This document shows positions 1,270 through 33,790 of a stretch of DNA of 63,359 nucleotides, one piece after another. Position numbers and translations under genes: made by a program. The notes beneath the pieces were generated by a model, which saw only the letters and a list, made by a program, of their open reading frames with translations, was not told where the DNA came from and did no database searches. The stretch covers positions 1 to 63,359 of the IMG/VR virus record IMGVR_UViG_3300023179_000108; one strand, 5' to 3'. Within the stretch, counting starts at the first letter, position 1. The number at the start of each line of letters is the position of its first letter. Source of the stretch: a virus (lineage: Duplodnaviria > Caudoviricetes).

Positions 1270-1710
1270 ATGAAACGAACAAATATTAAAGACAATATGA
1301 GTAAAATTTTAAATGGAGAAATGAAGATAACTTTTGTTCCTGCATTTAGAAATAGAATTAAAAAAGATAAATTATTAGGTGATCCAAAGTGTGGAGAGTG
1401 TGGAATTGGAGAAGAATGGAGAGGTAAAAAGTTATCTTTAGAATTAGATCATATTGATGGAGATAAACATAATAATAAAAAAGATAATTTAAGATATCTT
1501 TGTCCTAATTGTCATTCTCAAACCCATACTTTTAGAATAAAAAATTATAATAAACCTAAAAATAAAAGACAATGGGTAGATGAGTCTAAACTTATAGAGT
1601 CTATACAACTAGGAGGATCAATAGCTGATATTTTAAGACGAGCTGGGCTTAAGCCGGTTGGTGATAATTATAATAGAATTCATCGTCTTAAAATAAAATA
1701 TGAACTATAA
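1270..1710 (+). CDS. HNH homing endonuclease between tRNA genes
   Basis: CGECG...LELDHIDGDKHNN...NLRYLCPNCHSQT. Confidence 0.9.
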   Translation: MKRTNIKDNMSKILNGEMKITFVPAFRNRIKKDKLLGDPKCGECGIGEEWRGKKLSLELDHIDGDKHNNKKDNLRYLCPNCHSQTHTFRIKNYNKPKNKRQWVDESKLIESIQLGGSIADILRRAGLKPVGDNYNRIHRLKIKYEL

Positions 1711-4139: not shown

Positions 4140-4454
4140 ATGGCCTGTCACTGTTTATCTTTAAAAGATCAAAAAGAATTTTATAGTTTACTTAAAGCCA
4201 GAGATTCAGACTTAATTATAAAAATGGTGAGATGTGTTATTAGTGCTACTAAACGTAATAAACCAAGTATTGATATATTTGATATAACGTTTAAAAATTT
4301 AGATTCATTAGTATTTACTATTGAAAAAAGTCAATATAAAGAATTACTTTCTAATTGTTTAGATGATCTTATAGCAGTTGAAGAATATGAATTATGTGCT
4401 GAAATTAAAAAAATATTAGAAAGTAAAAGTAAAAAGAAAAAAGAAGCTCTTTAA
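4140..4454 (+). CDS. hypothetical protein with C-terminal UVR (UvrB/UvrC)-like motif
   Basis: IAVEEYELCAEIKKIL. Confidence 0.6.
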   Translation: MACHCLSLKDQKEFYSLLKARDSDLIIKMVRCVISATKRNKPSIDIFDITFKNLDSLVFTIEKSQYKELLSNCLDDLIAVEEYELCAEIKKILESKSKKKKEAL

Positions 4455-4459
4455 CATAC

Positions 4460-4827
4460 GGGGATGACTTGGAATTGATTGCTACACGAATGGCAATATT
4501 ACAAGTAGGAAAATGATACTATTCCTTAATATTGTATCAAAAAATAAATGCTGAAGAATTATCTTCCTTTACCTTCGAAGACGCTATGGCTTTCGTTGGT
4601 GCTGATTACGCAGTAGCTGCCTAATCACTCCCGCACACATCGTGGAATTTAAAAAGAATGTGCAACTAGAGTACGGCTCACTAACTCTTTAAATAAAAGT
4701 GAGAAACATAATGATAATGTATGTATAAAACTTATCTATTTGTCTATTATGAATAATATAATAAACTTGTGAGACGTTGATATTATTATTACTTAGCAAG
4801 ACGCCGGTTCGAATCCGGCCATCTCCA
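4460..4827 (+). ncRNA. ssrA: tmRNA
   Basis: 5' GGGGATG pairs with 3' CATCTCC including the G3-U70 alanine determinant; GCCGG-TTCGAAT-CCGGC T-arm; internal tag ORF ending YAVAA-stop. Confidence 0.93.
4550..4624 (+). other. tmRNA tag reading frame AEELSSFTFEDAMAFVGADYAVAA*
   Basis: ATAAAT immediately before the GCT resume codon; hydrophobic AA terminus. Confidence 0.8.
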
Positions 4828-4881
4828 CTTATATTTAACTTTCTTCCCTATTAGTTTTGTTAAGATTTAAAAAACTAACCT

Positions 4882-5508
4882 ATGAAAACACCATTATTTG
4901 TATTATTATTGTTAACGTTAAATGTATCTGCTCAAGATACTATTACTTTACATCATAAAGCATACTCAACCACATTTAGTAAATCAAAACATTATCCAGT
5001 AAAAGTAGAATGGTGGTTAACTAAAGCAATGCTAAACTGTACAGACAAAGTAAAACGTACAGATAAGTTTATACCAGACCCTAAATTACCTAATGAAACT
5101 GACTTACAAGCAGATTACAATAATACAGGTTTTGATCGTGGACATAACTTTAATGCTGCTGATGGTGCTTGTGATCAAATAACAATGGAAGAGTCATTTT
5201 ATTTTAGTAATATGACTGCTCAGTATCCATCATTAAATAGAGGTGATTGGAAAGCACTAGAATCATGGACACGTGAAATAGCATCTAAAGAAGACTCAGT
5301 TCATATTTGGTGTGGATCAATTGGTATTGAAAAAAAAATTGGTACAACTGCTATTCCTAAACAATGTTGGAAAGTGATTTATATTAAAAAAACAAACGAA
5401 TGGTTAGCTTATTTATTTAATAATGATACAAGTAAAGCTGATGGAATAGATAATAATAAAGTAACTATAACCAAAATAGAAAAGTTAACCAATTTTAAAT
5501 TTAAATAA
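4882..5508 (+). CDS. DNA/RNA non-specific endonuclease (NucA family) with signal peptide
   Basis: GFDRGHN, ESFYFSNMTAQYPSLNRGDWKALE; signal-like MKTPLFVLLLLTLNVSA. Confidence 0.9.
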   Translation: MKTPLFVLLLLTLNVSAQDTITLHHKAYSTTFSKSKHYPVKVEWWLTKAMLNCTDKVKRTDKFIPDPKLPNETDLQADYNNTGFDRGHNFNAADGACDQITMEESFYFSNMTAQYPSLNRGDWKALESWTREIASKEDSVHIWCGSIGIEKKIGTTAIPKQCWKVIYIKKTNEWLAYLFNNDTSKADGIDNNKVTITKIEKLTNFKFK

Positions 5509-5567
5509 TATTATTATACAATAATCCAGTAAATACTCATATTTATTAGTGTTCACCGTTAAAACTA

Positions 5568-8018: not shown

Positions 8019-9108
8019 CATCGACCGACAATACTTAGAACTTGTAAACCACATCCTACGATTCGGATATACTAAACAAGACCGTACCGGAACAGGAACC
8101 AAGTCCATATTCGGGTGGCAGATACGCCATTCTATGAAGGACGGATTTCCACTTCTCACTACAAAGAAGATGGCGTTCAAGACGATGGTGACCGAACTAC
8201 TGTGGATGTTACGCGGAGACACAAACATTAAGTATCTTGTGGATAATGGTTGTCATATATGGGATGGTGATGCTTATAAGAATTATGTAAATACACATGA
8301 AAATTATGAGTGGACAGATGAATTTTGTAAAAAAAATCTTAAAGATTGTGGAGACCAATGGATGGAATTGAGTAAAGAAGAATTCATCAACAAAATCAAA
8401 ACCGATGATGAGTTTGCAAAGAAGTGGGGTGAGTTAGGTCCAATTTATGGCAAGCAATGGAGAAAGTGGAAGCAAAAAGATATATTGGAATGGGGTTATA
8501 AAGAAGGGGAAGTAGAGGTAGACCAAATCGCAAACGCAATTCATCCACTGAAAACAGACCCTGATAGTAGGAGGATACTTGTGAGTGCTTGGAACGTAGG
8601 AGAACTTGACCAGATGACGTTGCCACCGTGTCACTACTCGTTTCAATTTTATACGAGAGAGTTGAGTGAAGATGAGAGATATGAATTATGTGCAGCACAA
8701 AAAAGTAAAATGACTGCAATCTCTGAAGAAGATTATATCAAATATAACATTCCAACACGAGCAATCTCTTTATCCTGGCAACAACGCAGTGTGGACGTGG
8801 GATTGGGCCTCCCCTTTAACATCGCATCCTACGCTCTTTTGTTGGAAATTATAGCCAAAGAAGTCAATATGGTTCCCGAAGAAGTGATTGGTAACTTGGG
8901 AGACTGTCACATCTATCTCAATCACGAAGAGGGATTGAAGGAGCAATTGACGAGGATTCCTTACGATTTACCCAAATTAAAATTCAATCCCATATTTTTA
9001 GCTAATTTAGAACAGAAAGGGTTTGATGAAGCTGTTAATGGACAAATCAATTTTGAGTTAGAGAATTATCAATCGCACCCAGCAATTAAACTTCCCCTTT
9101 CAAATTAA
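8011..9108 (+). CDS. thyA: thymidylate synthase
   Basis: DRTGTGT, FPLLTTKK, LGPIYGKQWR, DSRR, LPPCH, QRSVDVGLGLPFNIASY, GDCHIY. Confidence 0.98.
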   Translation: MNNIDRQYLELVNHILRFGYTKQDRTGTGTKSIFGWQIRHSMKDGFPLLTTKKMAFKTMVTELLWMLRGDTNIKYLVDNGCHIWDGDAYKNYVNTHENYEWTDEFCKKNLKDCGDQWMELSKEEFINKIKTDDEFAKKWGELGPIYGKQWRKWKQKDILEWGYKEGEVEVDQIANAIHPLKTDPDSRRILVSAWNVGELDQMTLPPCHYSFQFYTRELSEDERYELCAAQKSKMTAISEEDYIKYNIPTRAISLSWQQRSVDVGLGLPFNIASYALLLEIIAKEVNMVPEEVIGNLGDCHIYLNHEEGLKEQLTRIPYDLPKLKFNPIFLANLEQKGFDEAVNGQINFELENYQSHPAIKLPLSN

Positions 9109-21467: not shown

Positions 21468-22103
21468 ATGAAAGTAATAGAGAAACCATGGTACTATGGT
21501 TCATATTTAGCCTATGAAGACATTGAAGATGAGTTTATACCTACTGAACGAGGAGTAAGGGTATTACCTGCTCCATTCTTCTATGATAAAAAGATATTTT
21601 TCACTTTACATAAACAATACCAACCAGGCGAAAAACAATCATTCCCAAATGGTGGTTATGAAGTCATAGACATGACTGGTGGTATTAGAAATTATGACTT
21701 AGATCAAATCATTATTCACCCAGCAGTATTGAAACATAAAAAGATGCTGGAGAAAATGAAACGTAGAACTGAAAAAACTCAAAAGCAAATTGATCGAGAA
21801 TTAAGAAAACGTAATCGCGAAGCTAAGAAACAAAATAAAACAGGCAAACGAGGCAGACCAGCACTTAATTCAGAAGAAAAAGCAAAACGAGAAATAGCTA
21901 AAGCAGAAAGTAAAACACGTTCAGGTGGTAAACGAGGTAGACCCAAATCAAATACACCTAAACCAATCACTGAAAAAACAAATACAGGTAAACGAGGTAG
22001 ACCAGCATTAAGTGAAGAAGCAAAACGTCAACGTGAATTAGCTAAATTAGCAACTAAGGTTAGAAGTGGTGGTAAACGAGGTAGACCTAAGAAGGCAAAA
22101 TAA
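21468..22103 (+). CDS. AT-hook repeat protein
   Basis: Four KRGRP motifs in a duplicated TGKRGRPAL...RSGGKRGRPK unit. Confidence 0.8.
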   Translation: MKVIEKPWYYGSYLAYEDIEDEFIPTERGVRVLPAPFFYDKKIFFTLHKQYQPGEKQSFPNGGYEVIDMTGGIRNYDLDQIIIHPAVLKHKKMLEKMKRRTEKTQKQIDRELRKRNREAKKQNKTGKRGRPALNSEEKAKREIAKAESKTRSGGKRGRPKSNTPKPITEKTNTGKRGRPALSEEAKRQRELAKLATKVRSGGKRGRPKKAK

Positions 22104-22132
22104 AAGTCTTATATTTATTAAAATTAATAGTT

Positions 22133-22342
22133 ATGAAAAATAAAGTTTGGCACAAAATCACTATTGCTACAGAGGAACAGAATGTAGAAATACACCCAAC
22201 AGACACGTATGATGGTATCATAGTGGTGACTAAAGAGCTGGATGATAAGACAGAAAGTCCACGAATGTATCTGAATGAAGATGAAATGGAAATGCTTATT
22301 CTTAAGATGAGAGAGATGATGAATTCTGTTAAAGCAAAATAA
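22133..22342 (+). CDS. hypothetical protein
   Basis: ORF track; promoter at 22094. Confidence 0.7.
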   Translation: MKNKVWHKITIATEEQNVEIHPTDTYDGIIVVTKELDDKTESPRMYLNEDEMEMLILKMREMMNSVKAK

Positions 22343-22344
22343 AA

Positions 22345-22479
22345 AATTAGGTTGATCGGGGAAGGAAGAGACTTATAAACCCTGTCGATGGGTGGGTAGG
22401 GCCTTCGGAGTTGAAATCGTCAAAGTAAAGCCAATCATAAAAGTAGATGTCCACGCAACCATCTTCTACTTTCCTAATT
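22345..22479 (+). ncRNA. putative structured ncRNA with pseudoknot
   Basis: AATTAGG/CCTAATT closing stem, TGATCGG/CCAATCA, AAAGTAGA/TCTACTTT; GATGG-GTGGG (22387-22396) is complementary to loop TCCAC..CCATC (22450-22463); GC-rich and non-coding. Confidence 0.6.
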
Positions 22480-22562
22480 CTCAGTGTTCCCAGAGATTAA
22501 ACGGGGGCTATTGACGACTGGAGATTAGTCGTAGGTTCACGATGCAAGAGAAATCGTAGGTT

Positions 22563-22699
22563 AGTCAGGTGGCGGAATTGGTAGACGCAAATAGGGTGTG
22601 TAAGTGTGAATCTAATCCGAGAGGTAGTCGCTCGGACAATAAAGCACTCGATTGATGAAGTGACTTGTCATCATACAGGTTCGAATCCTGTCCTGACTG
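22563..22699 (+). ncRNA. tRNA-shelled element, long structured insert
   Basis: AGTCAGG-TGGCGGAATTGGTAGACGC...ACAGGTTCGAATCCTGT-CCTGACT-G; no anticodon arm; insert hairpins TCCGAG/CTCGGA and TGATGA/TCATCA. Confidence 0.8.
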
Positions 22700-23037
22700 A
22701 TAAAAAAATAATATATGACAGAACTTGAGTATATACAGAAAAAACTGAATGTCATAAAAAAACTACGGAAGAACAACAAACCCTAAATTATGAATAAAAA
22801 AATAAAAGAAACTATTTTATTAATAGGTGCAGCCTTAGTTTGGTCATTAATATTGTATCTCCTATTTAAATTAATTCAATAAAAACACAATGAAAAAAGT
22901 AAAATTAGAACATGAAAAAAAGAAAGTTAAAATGGGTAGCGTGGTTTGAAACTCCGATATGTTTCTATACCAAAAAAGAAATGTTAAAATATTGCGAGGG
23001 GAAAATCGTGATGAAGAGTAAAATGAATTGTCATTAA

Positions 23038-23055
23038 AATCCTGTCCTGACTACT
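23038..23055 (+). repeat. 3'-half-only copy of the tRNA-shelled element
   Basis: AATCCTGTCCTGACTACTA with no 5' half upstream. Confidence 0.85.
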
Positions 23056-23193
23056 AAAACTTAAAAACATGGAACAAGAAAAATGCAATGTGTGTAATTA
23101 TGAAAATGGGCATAATTCACTATGTCCTAATAACGTGATTAACTCTGATGTGTACGAATATCAGAATAGTCAAATTGAAGAGTAAAATAACAT

Positions 23194-23271
23194 AGTCAGG
23201 TGGTGTAATTGGCAACGCAACATATAAGTCCGAGTGCATTGTTGATACAGGTTCGAATCCTGTCCTGACTA
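23194..23271 (+). ncRNA. tRNA-shelled element, short insert
   Basis: AGTCAGG-TGGTGTAATTGGCAACGC...ACAGGTTCGAATCCTGT-CCTGACT-A; CAACA/TGTTG stem with an oversized loop. Confidence 0.8.
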
Positions 23272-23454
23272 CTAAAATTAAAAGTTATGGAAAAAGATAA
23301 AGACTTTGAATCATTTGGATATAATACAGACAATCCATGTGAAATATGTGGAGAAAAACCTGCTAAAATAGAACCAAGATTCTTTTATACTGTTTGTAAA
23401 GAACATCAGTATTTAACACCCACACAAGTAAGTGAGTTAAAAATAAAGAAATAA

Positions 23455-23481
23455 TCAGGTGGGGGAATCCTGTCCTGACTA
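23455..23481 (+). repeat. internally deleted copy of the tRNA-shelled element
   Basis: TCAGGTGG fused via GGG to AATCCTGTCCTGACTA. Confidence 0.8.
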
Positions 23482-23633
23482 CTAAAAATAAAATACATGA
23501 AAACTCTATTTTGGATTTGTTACTATGGGCTTATAGTTGTATTAGGTATATATGCCGTTGTAAAATTCATTAAAAATAAATAAAAATTACAGAAGGCAAA
23601 ATAATTTTTTTATATTTACTAAAATTAAAAATT

Positions 23634-25114
23634 ATGATGTCAAACGATGAAATTCAAAAATGGAATAGAGAAATGTTCAATGAAATGCATGAACCTATTC
23701 AAGAAAGTGTTTCTGATGCTCTAGATTATGTTAAGTATACTTTAGAAGAAGCAAAAGAATGTCATATGGAAACTGAAGTGGTAGTTTGGGCTCTAAAGTA
23801 TATGAAAGATGATCCAACACTAACTATTAAACAGGCAATATCTTACTCATTTAACGATTGGATAAAATAAACAAATGAAAACATTTAGAATTATTGAAGA
23901 AGCCCCAGTTATCTGTGTTTGGACATACATAGTTGAAGCAGAAACTGAAGAAGAAGCATTAGAACTAGTAACAAATGGTGATGTTGAAGCAGCGGAGATG
24001 AATATTGAAGTAGATTATGAAGATGCTGAATTCACATACCATATTGAAGAAGAAGAGGCAAAATAATTATTTTATCTTTATTTAAACAATTAAAACAAAG
24101 GTTATGACAAAGCAACAAACAATTGACACTCTGAAAAGTCAACTCCCCGGATTTTATTCAGTTGAACAAGTAATCGCACTTATTGATGGTATTGAAGCTG
24201 AAACTGAACAAACAGCAATATCAAAACTTGATAGTGACAAAGTATCATCACTTGTAAGAGATATGGTTGAAGAAATATGTGATCAAGCTGATTCTCTAAT
24301 AGATAATTATGAGCTGGAAATGAATGGTAGAGAAGTAGAAATGACAAGTATTACACTTGATCTGTATGGTTTGAAATCAATAGTAGAAGAATATTTGAAA
24401 GATAATAATATAATGTTGATTGAGAAAGAAGAAAGTGATGAAGATTAAGTTGGCAAAATAATTATCTTACATTTATTAAAATTAAAAATTATGGCAAAAA
24501 TTGAATTTGTAGAACTCAAAGATGTTGATGATTCTTTATGGTATTTTACTCAAGTAAATGGATGTTATATTGTTAATTCTGGTAGTTTCAAGAAAGAAAA
24601 AGCATATGATTTTTTCAAAAAGTACGTTGAAAGCTCAAATAAAAAACCAGTTGAAACCGTTCTAGAAACTGTTGAAGTAGAAGAAGCAGCCGCACCATTC
24701 TAAAACAAACCATTATGAAAATTCAACTTGTCAAAGAAACAAAATACGACAAAGCCACCTACTACATTACAGTAGATGGTAAGTTCAAAGCTGGTTCCAC
24801 TTGTGATAACCTAGCAGAGGCACTGGAAGCATTTGAAGATGCTAAATATGAAGTAAATGGTAAGCGTATCGAAATTCTAATGCAAGAAGAACTTTAAAAA
24901 GGCAAAATAATTTTTATATCTTTAGCATATGAAAAAAATAATAATTAAAATCAACCAGCTATTGTTTACTAATGAAAATCAAAAAACATATAGCTTCACC
25001 CCAGGTACGCACACTATTCTGCCTACAGATATACTAGATGAAAAACAATGGATGAATGAGTTTAAAGTATCATTTATGTATGGTTGGCGAAGTAATCCAA
25101 TATATTTAGACTAA
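23634..25114 (+). other. small acidic hypothetical CDSs 23634..23870, 23875..24066, 24104..24448, 24491..24703, 24715..24897, 24929..25114
   Basis: ORF track; most have their own promoter motif. Confidence 0.7.
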
Positions 25115-25265: not shown

Positions 25266-25502
25266 ATGAACAACGAAACGATGAATGTAGAAACAAAGCG
25301 CCGTGGAAGGCCGGTTGTTGAAAACAGTGCTCGCCAACTGAAACTCGCAGCACAAGCAGCACGAGGTGAAGTAAAACGAGGCCGTCCCGCGAATCCAAAT
25401 TCAAATCGCCAAACCAAAATGGCAGCACGAATGATTGTGATTGCAAATGGTGGTGAAGTAAAGCGTGGTAGGCCCAAGATGATAAAAGAAGTGGTTGCGT
25501 AA
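25266..25502 (+). CDS. small AT-hook protein, paralogue of 31056..31358
   Basis: Three RGRP motifs. Confidence 0.8.
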   Translation: MNNETMNVETKRRGRPVVENSARQLKLAAQAARGEVKRGRPANPNSNRQTKMAARMIVIANGGEVKRGRPKMIKEVVA

Positions 25503-25514: not shown

Positions 25515-25601
25515 GCCTGGGTGGTGGAATAGGTAGACACGCTTGACTTAAGATCAAGTTTGCAGAAAAAGCAAGTGCGGGTTCGATTCCCGCCCCAGGT
25601 A
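25515..25601 (+). tRNA. tRNA-Leu(TAA)
   Basis: GCCTGGG/CCCAGGT acceptor, CTTGA-CTTAAGA-TCAAG anticodon arm, long variable arm, GCGGG-TTCGATT-CCCGC T-arm. Confidence 0.95.
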
Positions 25602-25647
25602 CATAAATAAGATTACTAGTCTTATATGTTTACATATATTTATTAAT

Positions 25648-26115
25648 ATGAAACAATATAATACTAAAAAATCAAACAGTTGGGAAAAAACAGGTATTAA
25701 AGTTGATAATATCTCTCAACAAGAATTCGTTAATATATGTTCTAGTAGTGAATCAATGGCTCACGCCGCTTCTAGACTTGGATTACATTTTAATACTTTT
25801 AAAAAATATGCTCTTAAATATGATTGTTATAAACCAAATCAATCAGGAAAAGGATTAAAAAAAGAGAATGGGTATAGAGTAAAATATGATGGATTAAAAA
25901 CAAGAGCAGGAATAAGAAAACGAATAATAAAAGAAAAGTTAATTGAATATAAATGTAGTGAATGTGAAATATCAGAATGGAAAGGTCAAAAACTAGCATT
26001 ACATTTAGATCATATAGATGGTAACGCTTGGAATCATGATTTATCTAATTTAAGATTTTTATGCCCAAATTGCCATTCATTAACTGATAATTACACGGGA
26101 AAAAATAAAAAATAA
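25648..26115 (+). CDS. HNH homing endonuclease
   Basis: CSECE...LHLDHIDGNAWNH...NLRFLCPNCHSLT. Confidence 0.9.
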   Translation: MKQYNTKKSNSWEKTGIKVDNISQQEFVNICSSSESMAHAASRLGLHFNTFKKYALKYDCYKPNQSGKGLKKENGYRVKYDGLKTRAGIRKRIIKEKLIEYKCSECEISEWKGQKLALHLDHIDGNAWNHDLSNLRFLCPNCHSLTDNYTGKNKK

Positions 26116-26120
26116 AAGTT

Positions 26121-26375
26121 ATGAAAGCATACCAAGTATATAAAGGAGAACAAGATAAACACGGACATCAACAATTTGATTTAATAGCAACTTATTTAGA
26201 TAAACAACAAGCTTTAAACCACGCTGAAAAAATAGCTGAAGAAACTCCTTTGTATAGCGATACTATATTAGAATTTGATGGATGGTACGGGAAAGGTAAG
26301 TATTGTAGCTGGTCCATAAGAGGTTGGGAAATAATTATTGTTTCTCAATTCAGAGAGATTGAAATTATAGAATAA
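26121..26375 (+). CDS. hypothetical protein
   Basis: ORF track; ends 4 nt before a tRNA-shelled element. Confidence 0.7.
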   Translation: MKAYQVYKGEQDKHGHQQFDLIATYLDKQQALNHAEKIAEETPLYSDTILEFDGWYGKGKYCSWSIRGWEIIIVSQFREIEIIE

Positions 26376-26671: not shown

Positions 26672-26704
26672 GACCTGGAGTGTCTACTCCGGGTCTCTTT
26701 TTTT
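26672..26704 (+). terminator. intrinsic terminator
   Basis: GACCTGGAGT-GTCT-ACTCCGGGTC followed by a T-run. Confidence 0.85.
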
Positions 26705-28782: not shown

Positions 28783-28905
28783 AGTCGGGTGGCGGAATGG
28801 TAGACGTAAATACATCCAGTTATAGGGACTGAAACTCAAGCACATTTACGTTTTAGTAAATGAGAGATGAAAAAACTAATACAGGTTCGAATCCTGTCCT
28901 GACTA
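28783..28905 (+). ncRNA. tRNA-shelled element, long structured insert
   Basis: AGTCGGG-TGGCGGAATGGTAGACGT...ACAGGTTCGAATCCTGT-CCTGACT-A; insert hairpin CATTTAC/GTAAATG. Confidence 0.8.
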
Positions 28906-29029
28906 CTAAAAAAAGAAAAAATGTTTTACGAAGCAAACAATAAAAAGGATTTTATTATTGGTTGGATTTCGGGCGTGATATTCGCTATATCAATTGTAAT
29001 ATTGTTTAAGATTCTGTAAAAAATGTATT

Positions 29030-29824: not shown

Positions 29825-30163
29825 AAATGAGGGGGTCAAAACCCCCTCACTACATTTATCTTATAAAATTAAAACGTATGAAAATTAAAGTAATCAAAAA
29901 CGCTTATTACGTAAGTGAAGATTTGACTAATTACGGCTGTGTAGATGAAGAAACATTTAACAATTCATTTTCGCAAGTGTTGTGTGTTGGAGATATATGG
30001 GAGAGTTGTAGTACTGAGTTTGGTGACTTTTTTAAATGTATTAAAAGTAATATATGGAGAGAAGAGTTGAATGATGGTTGGTGGGATTATGATCGTATGA
30101 AAGATTATTTTGAAGTGATTGAAAATTAAAATGAGGGGGTCAAAACCCCCTCACTACATTTAT
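29825..30163 (+). repeat. direct repeat of a promoter-containing stem-loop (29825 and 30129)
   Basis: AATGAGGGGGTCAAAACCCCCTCACTACATTTAT occurs twice, flanking 29878..30129. Confidence 0.9.
29878..30129 (+). CDS. hypothetical protein
   Basis: Start moved to MKIKVIK, downstream of the promoter hairpin. Confidence 0.7.
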   Translation: MKIKVIKNAYYVSEDLTNYGCVDEETFNNSFSQVLCVGDIWESCSTEFGDFFKCIKSNIWREELNDGWWDYDRMKDYFEVIEN

Positions 30164-30588
30164 TAAAATTAAAAGTTATGAATTACAACATTGGTGATCA
30201 GGTCATTATTAAAGATGACAAATGTAAATTATATGGTACGATTATAGAAATAAATAATGACATAATCACAGTTCGTACTATGTTTGGAAATAAATTGGTC
30301 ACAATAAATGAAATTGTAGATTAATTGGGCAAAATTATTTATTATATTTAACCATTAAAATTAAAACGTATGAGAGTTACTAATGAATTGCTTCAAAAGT
30401 ATTTCGAAGCATTAGTTGCAGGTCAGCCTGATGATGTTGTAAATATGTTAATGGAGTTGTTTAATGAAAAAGTTAGTCAAAGGGAGTGGATTGAATTAAT
30501 TGCCGATGATGTTTATGATATATACAAAGATGTATAAATAAAAAGGCAAAACAACAATTGTATATTTAACCATTAAAAATTAAAAGTT

Positions 30589-30867
30589 ATGTTTACAAGT
30601 AATCGCAACAAAGGATTCACAATGACATTTGAAAATGGCTGGACTATAAGCGTTCAGTGGGGTATAGGAAATTATTGTGATGTAGGCCGTTCAGCAGAAG
30701 ATTATAATGAATCAACAAAGCATAAATCTTGGAAATCCGAAACCGCTGAAATAGCAATATGGGATAAAAATGATAATTGGTATGAGTTTGAACATGACAC
30801 AGTAAAGGGGTATTGCACAGCCAATGAAGTAGCTGAGTGGATTTTGATTGCGGCTACATTGAAATAA
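30589..30867 (+). CDS. hypothetical protein
   Basis: GFTMTFENGWTISVQWGIGNYC; own promoter. Confidence 0.75.
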   Translation: MFTSNRNKGFTMTFENGWTISVQWGIGNYCDVGRSAEDYNESTKHKSWKSETAEIAIWDKNDNWYEFEHDTVKGYCTANEVAEWILIAATLK

Positions 30868-32721: not shown

Positions 32722-33005
32722 TTTGGTGGCAAATATTACTTTGGGTAGTTGGAATTCACGTTGTTGAAGTTGTAGGTGTACTTATATTTTTATTAATGAG
32801 ACGAAATGGTGCTTTAGAAAAAGCACTTGCTGAACAACAACAATATATTGATGCTATTTCAATAGTAATTGAAAACTCTGATCAACAATTAAAAGAATTA
32901 GATAGAATGGGTGCTTTTGAAGCTGACGATGAAGTAGGAACTTTTTTTAGAAATTTAAAAGAAATTCAAAATCTTATTAATCAGTTCAAGACAAACCAAA
33001 AATAA
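32718..33005 (+). CDS. membrane-anchored protein
   Basis: N-terminal TM; GAFEADDEVG motif. Confidence 0.7.
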   Translation: MIWWQILLWVVGIHVVEVVGVLIFLLMRRNGALEKALAEQQQYIDAISIVIENSDQQLKELDRMGAFEADDEVGTFFRNLKEIQNLINQFKTNQK

Positions 33006-33019
33006 CTTGAATGTAAGAA

Positions 33020-33790
33020 ATGTATTATACAAACGAAGAAACTGATTTATTCTTAGAAGAAGAATTACAACTAACAAAGAAAGGAAAACCACGTAAACGT
33101 AAACCAAAAGAACCTCGTATCTATTTCACTCAGGATACTGAAGATGCTATTGTTGAGTATTTAATTACTGAAGATATAGCTTTACGTAATAAAATTTATA
33201 ATGAACGTATAAAATATGGTTTTTATAAATTAGCAGAAAATATTATTCATACGTTTAAGTTTTATTATACTGATACTGATACAATTGAAGAGTTAAAGCA
33301 TGAGGTAATTACGTTTTTATTAGAAAAATTACACTTATATAATCCAACTAAGGGTAAAGCGTTTAGTTATTTTGGAACAATAGCTAAGCGCTATCTTATT
33401 GTATATAATGAGAATAATTATAAGAAGTTACAAGAAAAAGCAGACGTAGATGAGAGTGATGATGATCAAATGATGTTGTATGAGCATGATGCTAATATAG
33501 AAAGAGTATTTGATGAAGTTATTTTTATAGATCAATATATTAAGTATATAGATAATAATTTGTTTAAGTTATTTCCTAAAAAACAAGACGCCCAAACAGC
33601 TGATGCTATTATTGAATTATTCCGGAAACGTGAATCATTAGAAATATTTAATAAGAAAGCACTTTATATCTATATTCGTGAAATAACAGATGTTTCTACT
33701 CCCCAAGTTACTAAAATTATAAAAAAACTTAAAATAATATATATCCAGTTATATAATGAATATTATAATAACGGATATGTAAAAGTTTAA
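33020..33790 (+). CDS. phage RNA polymerase sigma factor (gp55-like late sigma candidate)
   Basis: Region-2-like KLHLYNPTKGKAFSYFGTIAKRYLI; C-terminal helical segment. Confidence 0.75.
   Translation: MYYTNEETDLFLEEELQLTKKGKPRKRKPKEPRIYFTQDTEDAIVEYLITEDIALRNKIYNERIKYGFYKLAENIIHTFKFYYTDTDTIEELKHEVITFLLEKLHLYNPTKGKAFSYFGTIAKRYLIVYNENNYKKLQEKADVDESDDDQMMLYEHDANIERVFDEVIFIDQYIKYIDNNLFKLFPKKQDAQTADAIIELFRKRESLEIFNKKALYIYIREITDVSTPQVTKIIKKLKIIYIQLYNEYYNNGYVKV

Follow-up and report, generated by a model that had tools for sequence, protein, structure and literature searches.

What are the repeated units in a lake phage genome that carry the two ends of a transfer RNA (tRNA) yet no anticodon arm, and why do they alternate with very small open reading frames (ORFs)? 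The question is raised by IMGVR_UViG_3300023179_000108, a record of 63,359 bases with 29.5% G+C and nearly all genes on the + strand. We analyzed this whole stretch, referred to below as the window; a completeness estimate puts it at ~38% of the phage genome. A first-pass annotation had flagged one block of the alternation as integron-like, with the tRNA-like units, here called shells, doubling as recombination sites at which micro-genes are captured and shuffled. Comparison with other phages establishes that the shells are paralogous, predicted RNA genes and belong to an anticodon-less, Leu-tRNA-shaped family that is very widespread among phages. For the alternation itself we favor, as probable, homology-driven shuffling of modules over the action of an integrase.

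Shells are tRNA-shaped units without an anticodon arm

The 5' part of a shell consists of an acceptor strand and a Leu-type D arm; the 3' part comprises the T arm, the other acceptor strand, and a discriminator A, followed by C. The arms are near-invariant (26–27 nt), and the middles between them are hypervariable, 20–130 nt long, and mutually unrelated. Exact copies of the 19-mer CCTGTCCTGACTACTAAAA are located at 23041, 23259, 23469, and 28893, and copies with 2–3 mismatches at 22687, 26458, and 26624, which gives seven matches in the window as compared to none in 100 shuffles. The sequence TCAGGTGG is matched four times (0.41 expected), and its match at 21921 is unrelated coding sequence. 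The window contains five full shells and two truncated copies; the latter are a 3'-only and a collapsed copy, as the first-pass annotation had noticed. In the following, L-numbers denote viral loci and G-numbers the larger records that were compared.

22563..22700, + strand: shell U1; 138 nt with an 85-nt middle; family arms; acceptor and T arm present in the minimum free energy (MFE) fold
23038..23054, + strand: 3'-only shell fragment; begins in the T loop (AATCC...); same fragment type in L048 and L054
23194..23272, + strand: shell U3; 79 nt; Rfam tRNA 46.5 bits with a 17-nt irregular anticodon region; no tRNA called by ARAGORN at default settings
23453..23482, + strand: collapsed shell; acceptor-stem hairpin with the D loop fused to the T loop at GAAT; also found in L043 and twice in L169
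26380..26471, + strand: shell U5; 92 nt; Rfam tRNA 45.5 bits
26564..26637, + strand: shell U6; 74 nt; Rfam 42.4 bits; its 3' end is the right junction of module 2 (see below)
28783..28906, + strand: shell U7; 124 nt; Rfam tRNA 34.7 bits; lies in a segment that is replaced in G001

Four of the five full shells in the window pass the Rfam tRNA threshold of 29 bits, with scores of 34.7–46.5 bits, and U1 has no Rfam tRNA match even at E ≤ 1. A canonical anticodon arm (5-bp stem, 7-nt loop) was not found in the shells; in its place, the Rfam alignments contain 17–60 nt. ARAGORN at default settings called only U6, as Val(AAC) with a mismatched anticodon stem. That the shells are tRNAs with introns was considered and rejected, the intron-allowing ARAGORN run having returned incoherent anticodons. 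MFE folding recovered the acceptor stem together with the T arm in four of the five full shells, and variant copies keep the acceptor pairing by two-sided changes, for instance to G1-C72 and A6-U67, according to an anchor-based count that is noisy. In 182 of 185 copies the discriminator is followed by C, and the C mostly by A/T-A-A; this C looks like a conserved partial CCA or a processing signal.

The middles of the window shells have no match elsewhere in the window, in G001, or in the other loci. A cis-antisense role of the middles was rejected, since their pairing with their own flanks is no stronger than that with foreign ones (−18.5 vs −19.1 kcal/mol downstream, −20.0 vs −20.0 kcal/mol upstream).

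A widespread phage family of the T5 tRNA-like RNA class

Viral shell loci were collected by a 17-mer of the 3' arm, which yielded at least 119 contigs, many of them multi-copy; counts here and below rest on the matches listed. From these loci we extracted 185 shell copies of 30–190 nt. The family thus comprises 185 copies in at least 119 viral loci in addition to the window, with common arms and middles of very different length. A genome may carry several paralogues, which are clustered on one strand (17 in G002, 10 in G006).

The 22-nt 3' arm is found in only 18 contigs among 185,579 species genomes. All of these belong to metagenome-assembled genomes (MAGs), about half of which are binned as Bacteroidota, and all 20 copies in them are anticodon-less units, so the 3' arm is not that of a host tRNA. 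The first-pass annotation had likened the shell 3' half to the tRNA 3' halves that serve as integrase cores; this likeness is not supported, as the 22-nt arm is shared with no host tRNA in the set.

The shells belong to the class of the T5 'tRNA-like stable RNAs', RNA1 and RNA2, which the T5 record (NC_005859) annotates at 30501–30644 and 32959–33083 as 'tRNA-like stable RNA with unknown functions'. Like the shells, both T5 RNAs are located in a phage tRNA region amid tRNAs, small ORFs, and HNH genes (hegC/hegD), and in both the middle is long and contains no anticodon. The Leu-type D arm of the shells recurs in RNA1, and their T arm, CAGGTTCGAATCCTGTC, recurs in identical form in RNA2, whose middle contains a T-arm-like hairpin, as do those of some shells. 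However, the acceptor stems differ, RNA1 and RNA2 are single-copy whereas the shells form a multi-copy family with identical arms, and alternation with leader-bearing micro-ORFs is not described for T5. The T5 annotation refers to an expressed stable RNA, whereas the shells are known here from sequence alone.

Two further sequences are found repeatedly just after the shell in contigs that are not related to each other, TGACACGCACGGCA... and AC(A/T)T(T/A)CCAGCACGGG...ACATTTACCC (e.g. L006, L025, and L095; L027, L085, L106, L115, and L118). These may be shell-linked elements, also conserved, that act as RNA or in regulation. Related phages can have one or two tandem shells at the same site: L074 has two (4813–5031), with the junctions in the conserved 3' arms, and L085, L106, L115, and L118 have one.

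Shells lie between ORFs and at ends of homology

In the window, ATGs at 23069, 23287, 23497, and 28921 start ORFs of 38, 55, 28, and 32 aa. The first-pass annotation had placed these ATGs within about 15 nt of the 19-mer, and the spacing proved to be strict: the discriminator is located exactly 15 nt before the ATG in all five leader-bearing copies, the fifth being U1 with its ATG at 22715. The complementary claim, that ORFs stop just before the next repeat, holds for the ORF ends at 23185, 23454, and 26375, which precede the next unit by 8, 0, and 4 nt, but the unit after 26375 starts with TCAGGTAG and not with TCAGGTGG.

The same arrangement is found in other phages. An ORF stop ≤15 nt upstream combined with an ORF start ≤30 nt downstream frames 25 of 135 full shells, as compared to 6 of 210 canonical tRNAs from these loci (p = 1e-6, odds ratio 7.7); in 55 of the 135, both sides lack a tight ORF. 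Of the shell ends, 71 of 173 have an ORF start within 30 nt; the figures are 48 of 222 for tRNA ends and 775 of 3460 for random positions. In L169, a 99%-complete phage, the array at 8368–8982 reads ORF, 30-nt collapsed shell, ORF, identical collapsed shell, ORF, 74-nt shell, ORF. The alternation of ORFs and shells is a real and recurrent architecture, and the L169 array raises the possibility that the collapsed form is maintained and not just tolerated.

Shells are a frequent endpoint of homology between phages. We compared 186 high-scoring segment pairs (HSPs) of at least 150 nt between different loci, which have 292 internal ends; shells and canonical tRNAs each make up ~1.8% of the sequence. 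HSP ends fall at or inside shells in 70 of 292 cases and at or inside canonical tRNAs in 11 of 292. Scored per locus pair and shell (41 cases), homology runs through the shell in 14, stops with the other flank unrelated in 26, and resumes after a different middle in 1. Gene content around shells varies among relatives, a comparison that the first-pass annotation had proposed, and the part of its claim that makes shells sites of recombination agrees with these ends; an integrase-driven mechanism is unsupported (see below).

Truncation is rare (7 of 200 distinct copies) and recurs at one position. Five truncated copies, two of them in the window and one each in L043, L048, and L054, break at the same T-loop GAAT, for which the D loop offers a GAAT microhomology. 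A CTAA-type leader follows five of six scorable truncated copies as compared to 43 of 185 full copies (p = 0.004).

A search of public runs listed no RNA run that contains the stretch. In contigs assembled from four public runs, depth peaks and joints at shell arms stem from shells of other phages with different middles. One contig of run X2 matches only window positions 23449–23600, at the contig end, and is a single hint of a different upstream context. The junction 20-mer gave only two chance matches in metagenome contigs, in unrelated GC-rich DNA. A literature search, in which supplements were outside the scope, did not find tRNA-like inter-ORF elements or tRNA-like recombination modules described in phages.

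The flagged block lies in one indel between promoter-leader repeats

The closest relative, G001 (62,799 bases), was retrieved via a flanking protein and compared over the whole record. It is collinear with the window, 85–97% identical in most shared blocks, and separated from it by 20 gaps. G001 keeps the same six tRNAs and the transfer-messenger RNA (tmRNA), and the shell 3' arm is absent from it even when one mismatch is allowed. By this comparison, the shells prove to be accessory and evidently dispensable add-ons in this lineage.

The flagged block is part of a single 1,454-base indel, 22137–23590 (module 1), that is absent from G001. Module 1 contains, in order, ORF69, a degenerate tRNA-like stretch, U1, three micro-ORFs, the 3' fragment, ORF38, U3, ORF55, the collapsed copy, and ORF28. 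In the window it lies between two 47-nt promoter-leader repeats, which are represented by a single copy in G001.

22094..22135, + strand: promoter-leader repeat, left copy of the 47-nt direct repeat bounding module 1; aligns with the single G001 copy
22133..22342, + strand: ORF69; conserved small accessory gene
22347..22562, + strand: non-coding stretch; degenerate second tRNA-like unit and two-hairpin spacer; aligns with the intact unit and spacer after ORF69 homologues in L136–L141
22715–22786, 22790–22882, and 22912–23037, + strand: micro-ORFs of 23, 30, and 41 aa; open reading frames
23069..23185, + strand: ORF38; CxxC..H..C motif
23287..23454, + strand: ORF55; conserved small zinc-ribbon-like protein
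23497..23583, + strand: ORF28; hydrophobic micro-ORF
23595..23636, + strand: promoter-leader repeat, right copy bounding module 1

Two repeat copies versus one is the indel signature of shuffling mediated by PeSLs (PMC2839356), which are repeated intergenic promoter motifs of T4-type phages. Promoter-leader repeats receive 11 of the 40 junction ends between the window and G001, distributed over 8 of the 20 gaps. The flagged block was gained or lost as a whole between promoter-leader repeats.

A second indel, module 2, comprises an HNH gene (25648–26115), ORF84, U5, and U6 and is also missing from G001. Its junctions are located exactly after the 3' ends of tRNA-Leu and U6, at ...GGTAC and ...GACTAC, and the same sequence continues from U6 in the window and from tRNA-Leu in G001. 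The body of tRNA-Leu differs between the two phages. The segment with U7 and ORF32 is replaced in G001, with the left junction in a promoter-leader repeat and homology resuming at 29020. The first-pass annotation predicted breakpoints at the T arm or acceptor. Truncated copies do break in the T loop and module 2 does end at tRNA and shell 3' ends, but the junctions of module 1 are in promoter-leader repeats.

1270..1710, + strand: second HNH gene; fills an indel between tRNA-Pro and tRNA-Ser; 54% identical over 69 aa to the HNH gene at 25648
4882..5508, + strand: nuclease gene; phrog_14168, E = 1e-24; in indel 4817–5538 vs G001, directly after the tmRNA
25515..25602, + strand: tRNA-Leu(UAA), canonical; its 3' end is the left junction of module 2
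25648..26115, + strand: HNH homing-endonuclease-like gene; PF01844 21.5 bits, phrog_10822 E = 1.8e-30; like HNH genes of the T4/T5 group; absent from G001
26121..26375, + strand: ORF84; accessory gene
26672..26695, + strand: intrinsic-terminator-like hairpin; closes the tRNA/shell unit
28921..29019, + strand: ORF32; hydrophobic micro-ORF; G001 homology resumes at 29020

All three indels that abut a tRNA or tmRNA 3' end hold an HNH or nuclease gene. Nuclease genes at these ends fit free-standing homing endonucleases, for which cleavage is predicted. The tmRNA gene of the window (4460–4830; Rfam 74.8 bits) encodes a tag peptide ending in ...ADYAVAA. G001 also has a tmRNA, and the nuclease gene right after it is present in the window only.

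Shells precede a generic gene leader

An A-rich leader, TAAAATTAAAAnTTATG, precedes many genes of the window. It forms the last part of 24 promoter-leader repeats (~45 nt), most of them at 17–32 kb, in which a GGCAAAATAA element and a TATATTTA-like box come before the leader. The ATG comes 15 nt after the end of the box in six clear cases, a distance equal to that between shell and ATG, so the shell stands in place of the promoter half of the repeat. The CTAAAA...ATG found after shells is the generic gene leader of this phage and is not shell-specific; an ATG always follows a shell because each ORF carries the generic 15-nt A-rich leader.

Sigma-70-type promoters were rejected for the window, as their sites are not enriched (35 vs 40.3 expected), and window leaders lack a Shine-Dalgarno sequence. 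A TTG / TAnnTTTG promoter and a missing Shine-Dalgarno sequence are traits of Bacteroidota, and the promoters and leaders look Bacteroidota-type. Neither a terminator nor a promoter repeat was found inside module 1. Terminator-like stem-loops are seen in a few repeats (29863, 30120–30163, and 26672–26695), not in the two that bound module 1. G-run/C-run stem-loops that overlap the promoter-leader repeat at 29830–29880 and 30131–30160 resemble the PeSL stem-loops of T4-type phages.

No intact tyrosine recombinase found with the shells

The first-pass annotation had seen no integrase in the window, and profile searches agree: neither PF00589 nor PF00239 has a match there. It had also suggested looking for a tyrosine recombinase elsewhere. 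No intact one was found in the window or in 10 other shell-related records, including four that are at least 99% complete. PF00589 is without a match in the window, G001, and four more records; in five large shell-bearing records the only match is in G004, has three stops, and is ~46 kb from the shells. The same search found PF00589 in 14 of 14 control genomes. An intact PF00589 gene is present in none of the four records that are 99–100% complete (G005 with two shells, G004 with three, G006 with ten, and G007 with mini-shells).

Homology-driven shuffling as the probable origin of the array

We consider it probable, with modest confidence, that the array arose by PeSL-type, homology-driven modular shuffling in which the shell arms and the generic leader act as extra portable homology; the mechanism itself is inferred. 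Shells would be co-transcribed with small promoterless ORFs, and three kinds of repeats would provide portable homology: the 26–27-nt invariant shell arms, the generic leader, and the ~45-nt promoter-leader repeats. General or short-homology recombination at these repeats would generate both the alternation and its variability. Free-standing HNH or nuclease genes would add to the variability by inserting beside tRNA and tmRNA 3' ends, and truncated and collapsed shells would be the scars of such recombination events.

Both components have precedents. Like the window repeats, PeSLs, which are mobile regulatory cassettes of T4-type phages (PMC2839356; PMC4122927), are located upstream of ORFans in variable regions and flank indels between close relatives, two copies in one genome corresponding to one in the other (PMC2839356), and some window repeats have G-run/C-run stem-loops (29863, 30120–30163). 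Unlike PeSLs, the putative promoter of the window is not sigma-70-like and comes with no Shine-Dalgarno sequence, and a tRNA-shaped RNA gene can replace the promoter half before the same leader. T4 SegB is reportedly a free-standing homing endonuclease of the T4 tRNA region. Endonuclease-driven, microhomology-mediated rearrangement has been described in phage tRNA regions (T6 SegB; PMC13096335). Free-standing nuclease genes of this type (T4 SegB, T6 SegB, T5 hegC/hegD) share with those of the window a presence that varies between close relatives, junctions at a tRNA or tmRNA 3' end, and replacement of flanking tRNA sequence, here the body of tRNA-Leu in the window vs G001. A difference is that the HNH family of the window is rare near shells elsewhere.

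Several observations weigh against shuffling at shared homology. The HSP and pair counts are not independent, with ~15 separate events estimated behind the 26 stops; loci entered the set by matching the shell pattern; and a hypervariable middle terminates an HSP whether or not recombination has occurred. With G001 as the sole close relative, every junction counts as one event. The shells have weak MFE z-scores (+0.04 to −1.63). Of the 119 other shell loci, only 3 contain the window HNH family, a rarity that means endonucleases cannot explain shells in general. Finally, the same T-loop break in five copies and the identical collapsed copies arrayed in L169 are more regular than random scars; recurrent T-loop junctions and mini-shell arrays remain incompletely explained.

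The integron-like alternative makes the shells attachment sites, at which a site-specific recombinase, supplied by the host or by a gene elsewhere, would capture ORF cassettes and reshuffle them. As in integrons, a single upstream promoter is followed by promoterless short ORFs, each with a folded, imperfect repeat after it, and cassette content varies; this array is also present in L169. Two copies in the window and those in L043, L048, and L054 have their junction at one and the same T-loop position, the layout of intact shell, insert, and 3' fragment resembles attL-insert-attR, and truncated copies keep leader and ORF more often than full ones do. Yet a recombinase-driven mechanism is very unlikely and not supported. 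Intact PF00589 is missing from the window, G001, and nine other shell-bearing records, the four nearly complete genomes among them, and PF00239 from the window; no host tRNA in the species genomes has the 22-nt core; and the D-loop/T-loop GAAT microhomology suffices to explain recurrent collapse. Unlike integrons, the window has no integrase, attI, or attC-type core, its repeats are RNA genes with tRNA features, and its junctions are in promoter repeats, including those that bound the flagged block, and at tRNA 3' ends beside HNH genes. A distinctly improbable alternative makes the shells tRNA mimics that soak up tRNA-targeting host defense nucleases, with their multi-copy, ORF-interleaved layout a by-product of endonuclease-driven segmental amplification and subsequent divergence. 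The clustered same-strand paralogues, an HNH gene 264 nt from U5, and an invariant arm sequence that fits a sequence-reading partner are all compatible with decoys, and SegB-driven amplification of a tRNA segment allows escape from Septu (PMC13096335). However, the units are not tandem copies of one segment, since the ORFs and middles between the arms are unrelated, the HNH family is as rare near shells as stated above, and a defense target for shells is not known.

A third alternative is compatible with shuffling and tentatively possible, although less probable than it: shells may serve mainly as tRNA-like processing signals that punctuate polycistronic early transcripts. Cleavage by RNase P at the shell 5' end, and past the discriminator by RNase Z or a different 3' enzyme, would release monocistronic micro-ORF mRNAs whose 15-nt leaders would match those of promoter-driven genes. 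The acceptor, T arm, and elbow are the parts of a tRNA read by RNase P, RNase Z, and the CCA-adding enzyme, and only these are conserved in shells, the decoding half being free to vary. Punctuation also agrees with the excess of tight ORFs on both sides of shells and of ORF starts just downstream, with the identical spacing from discriminator and from promoter box to ATG in the five window copies, and with the lack of a terminator or promoter repeat inside module 1. Plant mitochondrial t-elements, non-decoding tRNA-like structures at mRNA ends in polycistronic units, are a precedent (PMC1920247); unlike them, shells occur in phages as many paralogues with sequence-invariant arms, and a punctuating role would be an inference. 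It is hard to reconcile with the 30-nt collapsed copies and 17-nt 3' fragments, which lack D and T arms and sit in the same inter-ORF position, with the absence of any shell from G001, the closest relative, and with the 55 shells that have no tight ORF on either side; moreover, it leaves the invariance of the arm sequence, beyond arm structure, unexplained. That shells and 30-nt collapsed hairpins are dual-purpose inter-ORF modules, combining RNA punctuation with integrase-free DNA exchange, is rather unlikely. If they were, the RNA role would give each micro-ORF the 15-nt leader that a promoter would give, the invariant arms and preferred T-loop break would let unrelated phages exchange leader-plus-ORF cassettes, and shells would be a tRNA-shaped counterpart of PeSLs and attC sites.

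Modular shuffling at portable homology, our preferred reading, would extend PeSL-type exchange to phages with Bacteroidota-type signals and removes an attractive but unsupported integron analogy. It connects anticodon-less tRNA-shaped phage RNAs, unexplained since T5 and T4, with the gain and loss of tiny accessory genes. Shells differ from real tRNAs in their placement, between ORFs and at mosaic joints.

Micro-ORFs and neighboring genes

Two cargo peptides, ORF38 and ORF55, contain the Cys/His motifs that the first-pass annotation had pointed out. The ORF55 family has 117 cluster representatives at E ≤ 1e-3, mostly of 50–70 aa. An alignment of 33 members shows no variation at C18, C21, or C37 and at least 90% conservation of H40, within the family motif FGY..T...CxxCG..PA..EPRF.Y..C..H. 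By its sequence conservation, ORF55 is established as a real and widespread predicted gene family; no Pfam or PHROG family was found for it. A single-protein search of viral contigs and a search of metagenome contigs returned no relatives of ORF55, and a small-alignment search identified one distant viral locus, which has no shell within 1.5 kb, so the ORF55 family is not tied to shells.

Homologues of ORF69 are present in 14 viral loci (two pairs look duplicate), with shells nearby in 12 of the 14; no Pfam or PHROG family was found for it. Homology begins in the leader and stops at the stop codon. In L133 and L143 the homologue is preceded by a shell; in the other loci a promoter-like or different sequence takes this position. 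The neighboring genes differ. Downstream, a tRNA-like 5' arm is located ~11 nt after ORF69 in seven loci (L136–L142; L141 and L142 look duplicate), and the aligned loci L136–L139 and L141 have a tRNA-like unit, a two-hairpin spacer, and a shell in this order, which suggests that ORF69 and its RNAs also travel as one block. Window positions 22347–22562 are a decayed version of this unit and spacer. The tRNA-like unit preceding the U1 spacer is intact in the relatives and decayed in the window. The two spacer hairpins differ in sequence from those of the relatives and keep their positions (window 22347–22562; L136–L141 ~4200–4400), differences that look like compensatory change.

ORF84 homologues are flanked by shells on both sides in L145/L146, and the one in L147 has no shell within 3 kb. 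For ORF41 a single relative was found, which is near-identical, and ORF38 has no tblastn match in cultured phages.

The flagged region is a portion of the variable early-gene/tRNA region of a large phage. The canonical tRNAs of the window are five at 1116–2945 and tRNA-Leu at 25515–25602; other genes encode a thymidylate synthase, an endolysin, and baseplate-like proteins. Among cultured phages no close relative was found, the sole match being an HNH gene with ~70% identity. Two proteins, encoded at 21468–22103 and 25266–25502, contain repeated GKRGRP or KRGRP motifs, and the former matches Pfam AT_hook; both may be DNA-binding early proteins.

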